A stretch of DNA of 64,000 nucleotides from a virus, in the IMG/VR virus record IMGVR_UViG_3300035034_002581. One strand, written 5' to 3'. The translations under genes were made by a program, and so were the position numbers. The notes under the pieces are model-generated. The model was not told the origin of the DNA and searched no databases. It saw nothing but the letters and a program-made list of their open reading frames with translations. Positions 41,701 to 48,485 of the stretch are shown here, piece by piece (within the stretch, counting starts at the first letter, position 1; each line of letters starts with the position of its first letter).

Positions 41701-41997
41701 TTACATCAGTTCAATGATAATTCTCCAAATATAGTCTGGGTCCACATCTTTCTTGTCGAGTTTAAGTGCTAGAGTACATTGCTCATTGACATCACTAGAA
41801 TTAAATGTGCTCCAGTCGTATTGACTAGCTCCGTCGGGTAAACTCTTTCGAGTTCTAGCATTTCTAAGTGCATCGTCAAATTTTTCAAACGAACTTGAAG
41901 AAAGATTGCTTTTTTCACCGCTTGTACGAGACTCTTGCCAACTACTAACCTTATAGTTAAATTCAGTTTTCATTCTCATTTTTTCACCCCTTGACAC
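41701..41997 (-). CDS. Hypothetical protein
   Basis: 98-aa ORF overlapping rtcB stop region by 14 nt. Confidence 0.35.
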   Translation of the reverse strand: MSRGEKMRMKTEFNYKVSSWQESRTSGEKSNLSSSSFEKFDDALRNARTRKSLPDGASQYDWSTFNSSDVNEQCTLALKLDKKDVDPDYIWRIIIELM

Positions 41998-43225
41998 AAA
42001 GGACTTGCTTTAAAGTATGAACGATCTCTACGAGATCTTTTTGTGCTGCCATTACATCATCAATCTCTTTGTATGCTGCAGGTGTCTCGTCGATAACACT
42101 CTTATCCTTCTTGCATTCAACACCCTCAGTTGCATCACGGTGCATCTTTAGTGTGAAGGTCTTGCGTGCTTCACCTCTAGACATTTTTCTTCCTGCTCCG
42201 TGGCTACAAGAATCGAAAGATTCCTTGTTACCCAATCCACGAACGACGTAAGACTTATCTCCCATCGAGCCAGGAATGATACCGAGCTTACCCTTTGCAG
42301 CACACACAGCACCCTTTCTTGTCAAGATCACATTCTTTCCGAAGTGCTTTTCACGGGAGATGTAGTTGTGGTGGCAGTTAACTGCAGTCAAGGATGCATT
42401 GAACTTACGCTTAAGTACCTTCTTCATTGCCGCTATGACCTGATCCATCATCAGTTCACGGTTGACTCTAGCATAGTTCTGTGCCCATTCAACAGCCTCA
42501 ACGTAATCGTTGAAGTGTGCAGTACCTTCAGGCAAATATGCAAGATTCTCGTCCTTCAAGTTGATGAAGTGACGTCTCATATCTTCCTTGGCAAGTCGGA
42601 TAAAGTAGCTACCAATTTTGTTTCCAATACCACGTGAGCCTGAGTGGAGCATGACCCAGACTCTGTTACTCTCGTCGAGGCAAACTTCGATGAAGTGATT
42701 CCCAGTTCCCAACGTTCCTAGGTGACGGAATGTATTACCGCCTGCAACTTTAGGATGCTTAGCAACGATGCTATTAAACGTTACTTCAAGTTCAGACCAC
42801 GCATTCGCCTGTGCTACTGGGATCTTGTTCTCATCCCAACCGCCCTTATCATACTTTCCTCCATTGTTTGTCCTGCCGTGTGGAACAGCAGCTTCAATAG
42901 CAGTACGCATTGCTTTCAAACTAGAAGGCAGATCCTCAGCAGTTAGATCAGTCATTGCTGCACACATGCCGCATCCGATGTCAACTCCAACTGCGGCAGG
43001 AATTACTGCTCCGACAGTCGGAATGACGCTACCAACAGTAGCTCCCATACCCCAGTGAACGTCAGGCATAGCTGCAATCCACTTGTGAATGAAAGGCATT
43101 TCTGCAGCATTAATTAGCTGTTGCTTTGCAGCATCTTCAACAGGGACACCTTTTGTCCACATCTTGATTAGACCCTTCTCAGTCTTTAAAATTTCATAGT
43201 TTGATTTGTTCTTGCTGTTTGACAT
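41984..43225 (-). CDS. rtcB: RtcB-family RNA 3'-phosphate/2',3'-cyclic phosphate ligase
   Basis: 413 aa; conserved RtcB metal/GTP-binding motifs (MGATVGSV, GCGMCAA, HSGSRGIGNKIGS, NCHHNY, SCSHGAGR). Confidence 0.85.
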   Translation of the reverse strand: MSNSKNKSNYEILKTEKGLIKMWTKGVPVEDAAKQQLINAAEMPFIHKWIAAMPDVHWGMGATVGSVIPTVGAVIPAAVGVDIGCGMCAAMTDLTAEDLPSSLKAMRTAIEAAVPHGRTNNGGKYDKGGWDENKIPVAQANAWSELEVTFNSIVAKHPKVAGGNTFRHLGTLGTGNHFIEVCLDESNRVWVMLHSGSRGIGNKIGSYFIRLAKEDMRRHFINLKDENLAYLPEGTAHFNDYVEAVEWAQNYARVNRELMMDQVIAAMKKVLKRKFNASLTAVNCHHNYISREKHFGKNVILTRKGAVCAAKGKLGIIPGSMGDKSYVVRGLGNKESFDSCSHGAGRKMSRGEARKTFTLKMHRDATEGVECKKDKSVIDETPAAYKEIDDVMAAQKDLVEIVHTLKQVLCVKG

Positions 43226-43324
43226 AATTTACCTCGCGATTGATCTTTCCTTAGATCAGTCACGTTAATTTGTTCAAGCATGTTTTGCCTGACTCTATTC
43301 TATCTCATCTGCAATCAATTTGCA

Positions 43325-43564
43325 CTACATTTTTGAATGAAGTTTTGTTATTTCTTCATTGAGTGAAATCAAGTCCTCTTCAAGGTCTGAGATCCTCTCA
43401 TTTAGTGATTGATTTTCTTGTTCGAGCTCTGAAAAGGATAGGATCTTGTCGAGCTTGTTTTCATCAATAGATAGTAGTTTAAATAGAATCTTAGTTGCTT
43501 TTTCTACTTTTGATAGTCGACTCATAAAGTCTACGTCTTGTCCAGGATACCACATAAATGCCAT
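43325..43564 (-). CDS. Small coiled-coil protein
   Basis: 79 aa, heptad-rich C-terminus. Confidence 0.3.
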   Translation of the reverse strand: MAFMWYPGQDVDFMSRLSKVEKATKILFKLLSIDENKLDKILSFSELEQENQSLNERISDLEEDLISLNEEITKLHSKM

Positions 43565-46306: not shown

Positions 46307-46649
46307 TTTTTATTATACAGACCATGATGGTGGGTATGATCATTAATGTGTATTGACCAGAGAAAAAATGGGTCCCGAATGCTACAAGCATCAAGATGGC
46401 CAAAACAACGCTAGACATTTTGCGTGTACTGACTGGAAGCATACCAAAAGCACATACAATTTCAATGATACCCACAATCTGCATAACAGGGTCGAAATAG
46501 CCCCATTGTGCAAATTGAACTGCAAGACTCGGAAATGAGTTAAACTTGAGTGCACCCATAATTGCAAATGTAATAGAAGCGAAAAACATGCAGAACATTG
46601 CTAGTCTTTCTTTTTCCACTACATCTCCAACGATTAATTGTAACAACAT
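46275..46649 (-). CDS. DoxX-like small integral membrane protein
   Basis: Four hydrophobic segments in 124 aa. Confidence 0.4.
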   Translation of the reverse strand: MLLQLIVGDVVEKERLAMFCMFFASITFAIMGALKFNSFPSLAVQFAQWGYFDPVMQIVGIIEIVCAFGMLPVSTRKMSSVVLAILMLVAFGTHFFSGQYTLMIIPTIMVCIIKIASFTNSEED

Positions 46650-46673
46650 GATGAAGGATTTACAATAAACTTT

Positions 46674-48485
46674 TCACTTTCTTGACGAAATCATCTGTTT
46701 TAAGACATTCCGCAAGAAAGCTTCAGACATGTTGTCTGTTGTGTTTAAGTAAGCTTCTACTTCTGCTTTGTCAAGTGCCTTTCCAAGCTCGCCACCCTTG
46801 ATGCCTTGTGCCATAAGATCTTTTGCACTTGACGCAGGCGGGCTTTCTGCAAAACTAACAAACTTACGGGCATCAGACGGGCTGAGAGAAGAAGATGGCG
46901 AATTGTTTGAAAAATCGATCACGTCCTGGCTCGAAAGCTTGTACTTCTTTCCAAACTTGATGTATTCTTTCTTTAAGTTCACAACATTATTGATGTCAAT
47001 TGAGCTTAATCGGATCAAGAAAGAAACGATGTCACCAACTGAATTCTTAAATCGCATTCTCTTCAACGTCTTCAGGGTGGCTGACGGATCATTAGCTGAC
47101 AACATTGTAGCAATTTGAACCTCAATACTTCCACCTAGAGAAATTCCACTCTCAGGACCCAGAACCCTCAGCCCAGGAAATATTTGGTCAGTTACAGAAA
47201 GTTCAACTGCCCAATCAATGTACTCTAGCGGATCTACTGCGGTGAGAATGCCCTTTACAAACTCATCTTGAATTCGGTCAGGAGACACACCCTTTAGGCC
47301 GCTCTTTGCTACCTGAGTAACAGCGTCTTCGGTCTCTTGATCAAGTCTTGATCCCATTCTCGCAGCAAATCTTATCGCTCGTAGCACACGAAGTGGATCT
47401 TCATTAAATCTTTCAATGGGATTGCCTACTGCACGAATCACTCTGTTTTTGATGTCTTCAATGCCACCTACGAGGTCAACAATTTCTTTCTCATCAATAT
47501 CGTAAAAAAGTGCGTTAACTGTGAGATCTCTTCTTTTAACATCGTCTTCGATAGAGGCCCACCTAACTTCGTCAGGACGCCTACCAGATCCAATATCTTC
47601 ACGGAATGTAGCGATCTCGTACTCGTTACCTTCGTCAGTCCAAACACGAACAACACCAAAGTCCTTGCCTGTTAGATCGATCTTAAAGTTGAGATTTGAC
47701 AGCACTTCAATTACACGGTCGGGTGTAAGATCAGTTGCAAGGTCATAGTCCTTTGGCGTTTTGTTCAGAAGTGTATCCCTAACAGCGCCACCAACTACAA
47801 AGAGGTCGCCGTATCTTTTAATTACATTGTGGATCGCAATGAGATCTTCTGGTAGATCCATTGACATGGGCCTTCGAATCTCTTCACTCTCTTTGATCAT
47901 AGAACTCATTTTTGACTCTTTAAGATCGAGGATGTCTTGATAGTTACAATTTGCAATCTTTTGAAACCTTTCCACTGGGTGCCCAACGCCTTCGACTCCA
48001 TAAAAATCAGCAGCATTTTCAAATGAACTTAAGTGATGATGCCTATCATCCCAAAAGTGAGCTTCTGATATCACTGGATGTTGTGCAAGGATCTTTTTAA
48101 TCTGTGACACCTTAAAGGATTCTGTGTCATTGGTCGTTTTCAAGTATACAGCGTCAAAATTAAGACCAGCTTGATGCAAAAGTTCAGCAACTCTGTATCT
48201 AATTGCGGCATTTGAGTTCGGCCTCCCAGTCATTAACACACAGAGAATGTTAGGATCAGCAATTGATTGCTTAGCCAAAGCAACAATCTCAGTATTCCAC
48301 CAATCCTTACTCGGAACTTCAGGAACACAAGGCTCAGATAAAGAAGCTGGGTAAGTCCACCAGCGACCAGGACCTTTATGTGCAGGCCAATCTGTTGGGT
48401 AAGTTGGACTTCCGAAAAGTGTTCCATCGAAGTCAAAAACATGAAGTATTAGTGTCATCTTGGTATCTCTGTAATTGATCCGCAA
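46674..48485 (-). CDS. Fusion protein: N-terminal HAD-superfamily (polynucleotide 3'-phosphatase-like) domain + class II tRNA nucleotidyltransferase (CCA-adding enzyme) head/neck
   Basis: HVFDFDGTLFG (HAD motif I) and HFWDDR (motif IV) in first about 190 aa; then LFVVGGAVRDTLL, DYDLATDLTP (DxD) and RRDLTVNAL motifs diagnostic of class II CCA-adding/polyA polymerase family. Confidence 0.75.
   Translation of the reverse strand: MRINYRDTKMTLILHVFDFDGTLFGSPTYPTDWPAHKGPGRWWTYPASLSEPCVPEVPSKDWWNTEIVALAKQSIADPNILCVLMTGRPNSNAAIRYRVAELLHQAGLNFDAVYLKTTNDTESFKVSQIKKILAQHPVISEAHFWDDRHHHLSSFENAADFYGVEGVGHPVERFQKIANCNYQDILDLKESKMSSMIKESEEIRRPMSMDLPEDLIAIHNVIKRYGDLFVVGGAVRDTLLNKTPKDYDLATDLTPDRVIEVLSNLNFKIDLTGKDFGVVRVWTDEGNEYEIATFREDIGSGRRPDEVRWASIEDDVKRRDLTVNALFYDIDEKEIVDLVGGIEDIKNRVIRAVGNPIERFNEDPLRVLRAIRFAARMGSRLDQETEDAVTQVAKSGLKGVSPDRIQDEFVKGILTAVDPLEYIDWAVELSVTDQIFPGLRVLGPESGISLGGSIEVQIATMLSANDPSATLKTLKRMRFKNSVGDIVSFLIRLSSIDINNVVNLKKEYIKFGKKYKLSSQDVIDFSNNSPSSSLSPSDARKFVSFAESPPASSAKDLMAQGIKGGELGKALDKAEVEAYLNTTDNMSEAFLRNVLKQMISSRK

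Follow-up and report, generated by a model that had tools for sequence, protein, structure and literature searches.

A minus-strand phage operon predicted to heal and rebuild tRNA 3′ ends by means of a HAD–CCA fusion protein

Why would a phage carry two RNA ligases together with a polypeptide that joins a phosphatase to a CCA-type nucleotidyltransferase, and do these enzymes serve one pathway? The question is raised by a window of 64,000 nucleotides (the whole stretch of DNA analysed here) from the IMG/VR virus record IMGVR_UViG_3300035034_002581, itself part of a 77.5-kb metagenomic contig, whose closest deposited relatives are ‘uncultured phage’ genomes of 0.46–0.74 Mb. A preliminary description of the window had located a gene for the RNA ligase RtcB and, 3.4 kb from it, a gene fusing a HAD domain to a CCA-adding enzyme, and had read the two as a single toolkit; both genes lie where it placed them, with a measured gap of 3.45 kb. 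We find that the unit is not RtcB plus fusion but a three-gene minus-strand operon composed of a 209-amino-acid (209-aa) open reading frame (ORF), then a gene for a predicted 2H phosphoesterase and then the fusion gene, and we consider that its enzymes probably heal and then rebuild the 3′ end of tRNA. The ORF listing places all genes of the 40–50 kb region on the minus strand, and the parts of the operon are as follows.

48913..49542, minus strand: 209-aa ORF with a hydrophobic N-terminus and a HEYGH (HExxH-like) motif; possible third operon member
48455..48913, minus strand: 2H phosphoesterase, predicted RNA 2′,3′-cyclic phosphodiesterase, 152 aa, by its HxT motifs and fold; first enzyme of the cassette
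46674..48458 (stop codon included), minus strand: HAD–CCA fusion gene, 594 aa (PF10307, PF01743 and PF12627)
47949..48458 (aa 1–170), minus strand: SAK-type HAD phosphatase domain, predicted RNA 3′/2′-phosphomonoesterase (HAD_SAK_1, E 3.8e-22)
46677..47873 (aa 196–594), minus strand: class II nucleotidyltransferase domain, most likely CCA-adding (PF01743, E 1.3e-33)

The stop codon TGA of the 2H gene overlaps the ATG of the fusion (ATGA), and its own start ATG overlaps the TAA of the 209-aa ORF (TAATG), overlaps from which we take the three genes to be translationally coupled. The 2H gene, despite this coupling to the fusion, was absent from the preliminary description. Searches with the 209-aa ORF against Pfam, PHROG and NCBIfam gave no match, and no fetched related locus holds a homologue; a likeness between its HEYGH motif and a C-terminal HEYGH in P0003, a relative of the fusion, was rejected as chance (BLASTP E 0.47). 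The reading frame of the fusion itself extends over 46674..48485, and its likely start, the ATG at 48458, yields the 594 aa that gene callers chose on three independent contigs encoding the identical protein P0001. Because the same architecture recurs at 47–56% identity on independent contigs from other samples (P0002–P0006), the fusion is no assembly artefact.

As proposed earlier, a HAD domain resembling the phosphatase of PNKP is fused to a class II CCA-type transferase, on which the Pfam matches (HAD_SAK_1 PF10307, E 3.8e-22; the PolyA_pol head PF01743, 1.3e-33; and PF12627) and intact catalytic motifs agree. The phosphatase hit that had been expected within residues 1–190 is thus significant, scoring 79.5 bits against a cut-off of 25.6, and the HAD motifs D9xD11xT13, T77, K107 and D137/D138 are intact and, in an alignment of the six fusion proteins, invariant. 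The nearest relatives of this domain are standalone proteins, among which T77 and the aspartates and threonine of motif I are likewise invariant, while the DD pair varies. An AlphaFold2 (AF2) model of the domain (predicted local distance difference test (pLDDT) score 94) finds its best Protein Data Bank (PDB) folds in T4 Pnkp (2ia5; E 3.8e-5, template-modelling (TM) score 0.48), Pnkp1 (4xru; 7e-5) and the HAD of Lem4.

The transferase half retains motifs A, B, C and D (GGAVRD at 223–228, D237xD239, RRD at 309–311 and EDPLR at 353–357), all invariant in the six-protein alignment, so that the carboxylates D237 and D239, whose loss would have undermined the original assignment, are intact. Its best PHROG is phrog_2244, ‘tRNA nucleotidyltransferase’ (1.1e-58), and its best PDB sequence match is the CCA-adding enzyme 6ibp (1e-34). 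It reaches no equivalog cut-off in NCBIfam, where the PcnB subfamily is the best model (180 bits against 306) and NF009814 the best CCA model (170 against 290); with no cut-off reached and scores about equal, CCA specificity is a point that we infer. These scores could instead mark a poly(A) polymerase or another RNA-tailing enzyme, for which the HAD and 2H proteins would unblock RNA fragments, for example to speed the decay of host RNA; a poly(A) polymerase structure from Escherichia coli matches nearly as well as CCA enzymes do (2.4e-34 versus 1e-34), and the label ‘poly(A) polymerase’ has been given to some homologues from phages. We rate this as unlikely, given the residues that follow motif A, a segment that Martin and Keller reportedly found in 2004 to be diagnostic of poly(A) polymerases: in E. 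coli poly(A) polymerase it reads LVGRRFRLAHV, opposite which the fusion has LTGKDFGVVRV, the polymerase-specific segment being absent and replaced by TGKDFGVVRV, which we take to resemble the VGRDFPVFLH of E. coli Cca. Nor is there a Pfam match in the fusion to the arginine-rich C-terminal domain of PcnB, and both the best PHROG and the setting, a tRNA-rich translation island, argue against tailing. The transferase domain is thus most likely, judging from its motifs and matches, a CCA-adding enzyme.

The 152-aa protein encoded upstream of the fusion carries the motifs H53-M-T55 (HHMT, 52–55) and H111-V-T113 (HVT, 111–113), invariant in five of five homologues. It scores 17.1 bits (E 0.004) on the Pfam model tRNA_lig_CPD, below the cut-off of 23, and two members of its family found via its profile pass that cut-off (P0163 at 32.5 and P0178 at 26 bits). 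A PDB sequence search with the protein returns nothing even at E 10, and no NCBIfam model matches it. In Foldseek, the 50 PDB matches listed for its AF2 model (pLDDT 75) are almost without exception 2H enzymes, mostly CNPase; the top matches are CNPase, a phage phosphodiesterase and AKAP18, with probabilities of about 1, TM scores of 0.5–0.58 and E-values of 0.03 or worse. We therefore assign the protein, with good but not complete confidence in what motifs and model predict, to the 2H cyclic phosphodiesterases.

If these three activities belong together, they should meet in relatives. From IMG/VR we took 80 loci centred on related CCA genes, which fall into 57 groups at 90% identity, and, as a size-matched control, another 80 centred on the nearest relatives of RtcB (59 groups), counting as linked any gene within 10 kb. 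Members of the 2H family accompany CCA in 15 of 57 groups and RtcB in 0 of 59 (Fisher p 8e-6), the SAK-type HAD in 6/57 and 0/59 (Fisher p 0.012), and one or other of the two in 19/57 and 0/59. Furthermore, the top match of the 2H profile among 1.84 billion proteins is P0067, a CCA–2H fusion with a C-terminal 2H domain that was already known to us as a close homologue of the window’s CCA domain; further fusions have the order CCA–2H (P0043) or 2H–CCA (P0134, L012 and L013). Locus L083 shows the fusion in split form: the gene for a standalone SAK-HAD (P0275) is followed 40 nt downstream by one for a standalone CCA enzyme (P0009), and the two proteins are 53% and 55% identical to their respective halves in the window. 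Behind a shared synteny of an intein-bearing ribonucleotide reductase followed by thioredoxin, L002 has the fused form and L084 and L085 have CCA alone. One relative of the fusion (P0003) possesses both HAD and HD_4 domains, and in other relatives the CCA protein is joined to a Nudix, PAP2, DUF192, cytidylyltransferase-like or 2H domain. The 2H, SAK-HAD and CCA genes thus appear to be a recurrent yet evolutionarily mobile trio, and phage CCA enzymes would evidently act as a hub for shuffled, presumed end-processing domains (HAD, 2H, HD, Nudix and PAP2).

The same neighbourhoods bear on a different view of the HAD, as a phosphatase of nucleotides or small molecules that acts on nucleotide pools and was fused by reason of gene neighbourhood and not of a shared RNA substrate. 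In relatives, HAD–CCA, fused or as adjacent genes, directly follows ribonucleotide reductase and thioredoxin, with ThyX, nucleoside deoxyribosyltransferase and dUTPase-like genes nearby. Against this, the nearest solved folds are the RNA end-healing phosphatases T4 Pnkp and Pnkp1, the family name in Pfam already refers to RNA-repair proteins, HAD is joined to CCA and to RNA-type 2H repeatedly in independent arrangements, and the window’s HAD is coupled to a 2H gene rather than to genes of nucleotide metabolism; we consider a nucleotide-pool role very improbable.

The locus set additionally yielded several variants on these genes. About 12 further IMG/VR loci and L022 encode proteins of about 315 aa with a C-terminal 2H domain of the same family, 1–10 kb from CCA; in L022 (14209..15153), the one scanned, the N-terminus is an AAA_33 P-loop kinase, giving a healing pair of kinase and cyclic phosphodiesterase (CPD) like that of Trl1. 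L006 (16249..19504) has a 2H gene followed by a 741-aa protein, made up of an N-terminal SAK-HAD and about 550 uncharacterised residues, 5 kb from CCA, a further arrangement of the trio. In L010, L060–L062, L068/L069 and L072, inserts of about 0.2–0.75 kb, possibly inteins, introns or homing elements, divide the CCA gene in two, and in L010 (7266..9979) it is a HAD–CCA fusion that is interrupted.

What the substrate might be is suggested by the tRNA genes of the window, of which ARAGORN finds 38, along with one tmRNA, where the preliminary description had counted about 45 tRNAs. Most of them form one array.

28312..39838, minus strand: main tRNA array (ARAGORN), 36 of the window’s 38 tRNAs

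The 3′ CCA is encoded in all 38 tRNA genes. De novo CCA synthesis is therefore unneeded, and the enzyme would serve repair and not maturation. Drawing the steps from the chemistry of the families concerned, we postulate that a metal-independent RNase, or transesterification, removes part of the 3′ tail of a tRNA, which would leave a 2′,3′-cyclic phosphate; that the 2H enzyme opens this to a monoester, by analogy with characterised 2H enzymes a 2′-phosphate; that the HAD removes the monoester via an aspartyl-phosphate intermediate, with D9 as nucleophile and D11 as acid/base; and that the nucleotidyltransferase on the same polypeptide, which would need only a free 3′-OH, re-adds the missing C, C and A. 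Through the fusion, an end once unblocked would pass straight to the polymerase domain. Both phosphate steps have a precedent, in that ThpR, a 2H enzyme, turns RNA>p into RNA 2′-p (PMC4201822) and the HAD domain of T4 Pnkp removes 3′-P, 2′-P and >p (PMC3592404). The earlier idea that the fusion dephosphorylates the tRNA 3′ end and rebuilds CCA is thus reasonable, in line with HAD folds that match T4 Pnkp and Pnkp1; its companion remark, that no described equivalent was known, fails against E. coli Cca, to which we return below.

How do the ligases relate to this cassette? The features that bear on this lie on either side of it.

41984..43225, minus strand: RtcB RNA ligase, 413 aa; co-resident separate module (PF01139, phrog_1075)
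58796..59824, minus strand: ATP-dependent RNA ligase (Rnl-type), 342 aa; co-resident (PF09414, E 2e-12; phrog_548 ‘RNA ligase’, 9.4e-60)
45109..45125, minus strand: terminator-like hairpin and T-run, a match to a consensus scan only; inside 45010..45562, which also has a plus-strand ORF

The identification of RtcB is borne out by a full-length match to PF01139 (E 2.4e-129, profile positions 1–426 of 426) and by phrog_1075 (1e-144), and D82, C85, N176/H177, H194, H286 and H342 align with Pyrococcus horikoshii RtcB, residues that we take to be the metal ligands, including the expected Cys and His, and the guanylylated His nucleophile. With 55–67% identity to many IMG/VR homologues, it looks like an ordinary phage RtcB with a predicted GTP/Mn-dependent joining activity. 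The second ligase noted earlier at 58796 is likewise a phage RNA ligase by PF09414 and phrog_548.

One might suppose, with the preliminary description, that RtcB, the fusion and the second ligase form one healing-and-sealing pathway directed at anticodon nucleases, the HAD healing ends that RtcB then seals; the three genes lie within 18 kb, beside 38 tRNAs, a tmRNA and genes resembling TilS and a release factor. We regard this as very unlikely. RtcB joins 3′-P or 2′,3′>p ends directly to 5′-OH, whereas ATP-dependent ligases require 3′-OH and 5′-P (PMC7824862). A 3′-phosphatase would therefore destroy the RtcB substrate, and since 2H and HAD would between them remove just that phosphate which RtcB needs, a joint toolkit is unsupported. 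Nor does the genomic evidence unite them: RtcB as a conserved partner of CCA was tested in both directions and rejected, with RtcB within 10 kb of related CCA genes in 0 of 80 loci and CCA, HAD, 2H or Rnl within 10 kb of related RtcB genes in 0 of 80. Between the cassette and RtcB lie nine small unrelated ORFs, the plus-strand ORF and the terminator-like hairpin. A polynucleotide kinase that could supply 5′-P to the Rnl-type ligase was not found in the window, whose only minus-strand P-loops are in PhoH and PrkA. As tRNA genes neighbour RtcB in 30 of the 80 related RtcB loci, in arrays of up to 29, RtcB would appear to be a module of its own, with a tendency to accompany tRNA genes. Anticodon-loop damage would be a job for the ligases rather than for the cassette, which fits damage to the 3′ tail.

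A use of RtcB in splicing tRNA introns was also rejected because no tRNA in the window has an intron. Three tRNAs are over-long, owing to long variable arms and not to introns: tRNA-Asn(GTT) with 90 nt and tRNA-Lys(TTT) with 91 nt, two identities for which such arms are unusual, and tRNA-Gly(GCC) with 81 nt (31105..31194, 33105..33195 and 30930..31010, in this joint order; all minus strand).

A sensible reading is one of three parallel tools within a single translation-support island: internal breaks that carry phosphate ends would fall to RtcB, those with OH/P ends to Rnl and damaged 3′ tails to 2H–HAD–CCA. On this division of labour, RtcB and the Rnl-type ligase would reseal internal breaks such as anticodon-loop cuts in parallel with the cassette, RtcB using the phosphorylated 3′ end as it is.

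If the cassette heals and rebuilds tRNA tails, against what does it do so? One possibility, which we put forward tentatively, is that it counters immune nucleases which trim tRNAs at their 3′ tails. The known phage answers to tRNA-targeting immunity, spare tRNAs and ligases, are both directed at anticodon-loop cuts, while a nuclease that clips the tail takes away something common to all tRNAs, in which spare copies cannot differ; in a fast-moving field, a set of enzymes that unblocks and rebuilds would, if the idea is right, be the matching counter-move. Such nucleases have come to light very recently. Cas12a3 was shown in 2026 to cleave tRNA CCA tails; according to its discoverers, phage tRNAs have no way of escaping this, and viral resistance mechanisms are ‘yet unknown’ (PMC12851939). 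HEPN-MNT toxins likewise clip CCA tails, while the acceptor stem is where retron Eco2 makes its nick (PMC12916289). A metal-independent nuclease of the HEPN type leaves a cyclic phosphate, an end that a plain CCA-adding enzyme cannot extend and that the two phosphoesterases would specifically deal with, and it is against nucleases of this type that the cassette would fit best. With its RuvC domain, Cas12a3 is expected to leave 3′-OH ends, for which the transferase alone would suffice.

The same chemistry could also be housekeeping, the upkeep of the phage tRNA pool against ordinary erosion of 3′ ends by RNase T-type turnover or spontaneous cyclisation. In E. coli, where every tRNA gene encodes CCA, Cca and its HD domain perform just this task (PMC6961547), and the phage is heavily equipped with translation parts of its own. 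We are inclined to doubt this explanation, on the impression that the patchy spread of these enzymes and their shuffling of 2H, HAD, HD_4, Nudix, PAP2 and DUF192 domains look driven by conflict. Even as housekeeping, the fusion would be a clean case of non-homologous domain displacement, with the E. coli Cca HD domain as the part displaced.

Several observations weigh against a dedicated cassette for healing and rebuilding tails. In 38 of the 57 groups of related phage CCA genes, neither 2H nor HAD lies within 10 kb, and the HAD/CCA pair of relatives sits among genes of replication and nucleotide metabolism, which would fit a nucleotide-directed phosphatase equally well. The window’s own 2H protein stays under the Pfam cut-off with weak Foldseek E-values (0.03), the transferase scores near-equally on PcnB and CCA models, and the 209-aa ORF has no known role. 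To our knowledge, neither the SAK-HAD family nor the 2H family of the window has any biochemistry, and a literature search for the former (PF10307, DUF2410) found no biochemical study. As for counter-defence, the discriminator base is in some cases lost to Cas12a3 as well, and a CCA enzyme would not put it back.

How unusual is the fusion? It forms about six clusters at 90% identity among 5.8 billion proteins and occurs in a few IMG/VR contigs. No deposited phage matched the 8-kb region in a Megablast search, and in a tblastn search of 50,697 deposited phage records the fusion matched 509, none of them covering at least 80% of it and none having the fusion. Across 185,579 species with one genome each, no HAD–CCA fusion was seen among the best 80 of 268 relatives, and the four best matches in cellular genomes look like phage contigs binned into metagenome-assembled genomes. 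Its parts are familiar, as phage RtcB, CCA enzymes, 2H enzymes and standalone SAK-HADs all appear in a survey of jumbo phages (PMC7824862). The fusion is thus a rare, uncharacterised domain-swap variant of a known concept, and the architecture may already have been drawn by Burroughs and Aravind in 2016.

The surroundings read as a translation-support island with tRNAs, a tmRNA, genes resembling TilS and a release factor, RtcB and the Rnl-type ligase, a heavy investment by the phage in translation parts of its own. The further features of note, all on the minus strand, are these.

6986..8413 and 20967..23784, minus strand: PIN–PhoH fusion (475 aa), Nudix hydrolase and 454-aa HD_4 phosphohydrolase
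9071..9438, minus strand: tmRNA with the tag peptide ANNNSHFQTALAA (ARAGORN)
14359..15096, minus strand: PP-loop ATPase (PF01171, E 2.5e-36; TilS-like), directly beside a CAT-anticodon tRNA
15921..20434, minus strand: complete PrkA / DUF444 / SpoVR triad, a stress-response operon of bacteria (E 1e-113 to 1e-137)
26367..26888, minus strand: 173-aa release-factor-like ORF with the end of PCRF and the RF-1/GGQ domain, truncated relative to cellular RF1/RF2
33631..36309, minus strand: 892-aa major-vault-protein-like gene inside the tRNA array (MVP_shoulder E 1.4e-26, Vault_3 2.2e-10, weak Band_7/SPFH)

The TilS-like gene and the CAT tRNA suggest a phage-encoded lysidine-type tRNA-Ile2 pair, and the PIN–PhoH, Nudix and HD_4 proteins are predicted to be further nucleotide- or RNA-directed enzymes of the island. 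By tblastn, the vault-like protein occurs in only three deposited records, all of them uncultured huge phages of 0.46–0.74 Mb.

Compared with known systems, the window’s HAD is a clear member, above the cut-off, of the ‘Swiss-Army-Knife’ (SAK) HAD family (PF10307), which Burroughs and Aravind reportedly predicted by computation in 2016 to heal RNA ends; from the ‘Swiss Army Knife’ set of multidomain RNA repair proteins, HAD_SAK_1 is the one domain verified in the window. In jumbo phages, where RtcB too has already been recorded, the SAK-HAD ‘tends to occur as a standalone domain’ (PMC7824862), whereas here it is fused to CCA. With T4 Pnkp and Pnkp1 (the latter of the Pnkp1/Rnl/Hen1 complex) the window’s HAD has the DxDxT phosphatase fold in common at a sequence identity of only 15–21%, but the fusion is without their P-loop 5′-kinase domain, and its partner is a nucleotidyltransferase and not a kinase, so that a healed end would be extended rather than ligated. 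Members of the window’s 2H family match the model of the CPD of Trl1, the fungal and plant tRNA ligase, in keeping with the comparison to ThpR, and related phages have Trl1-like AAA_33 kinase–2H proteins near CCA; unlike Trl1, the window’s 2H protein is a minimal standalone of 152 aa, coupled to a phosphatase–transferase and not to a kinase and ligase. The described functional equivalent is E. coli Cca, which likewise combines in one polypeptide a class II CCA-adding head with a phosphoesterase that clears cyclic phosphate or phosphate from the tRNA 3′ end. Its HD domain takes off the 2′,3′-cyclic phosphate, after which CCA can be repaired (PMC6961547, citing Yakunin 2004), and it counts as a repair enzyme on the same reasoning that we apply to the window, namely that the tRNA genes encode CCA (PMC6961547). 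Where E. coli Cca has a C-terminal HD, the window has an N-terminal HAD (DxDxT) and a separate 2H protein, and the fusion has no Pfam match to HD or HD_4 and scores 101 bits on NF008137 against a cut-off of 451. The window fusion is thus a functional analogue of E. coli Cca by domain displacement and not a member of its family.

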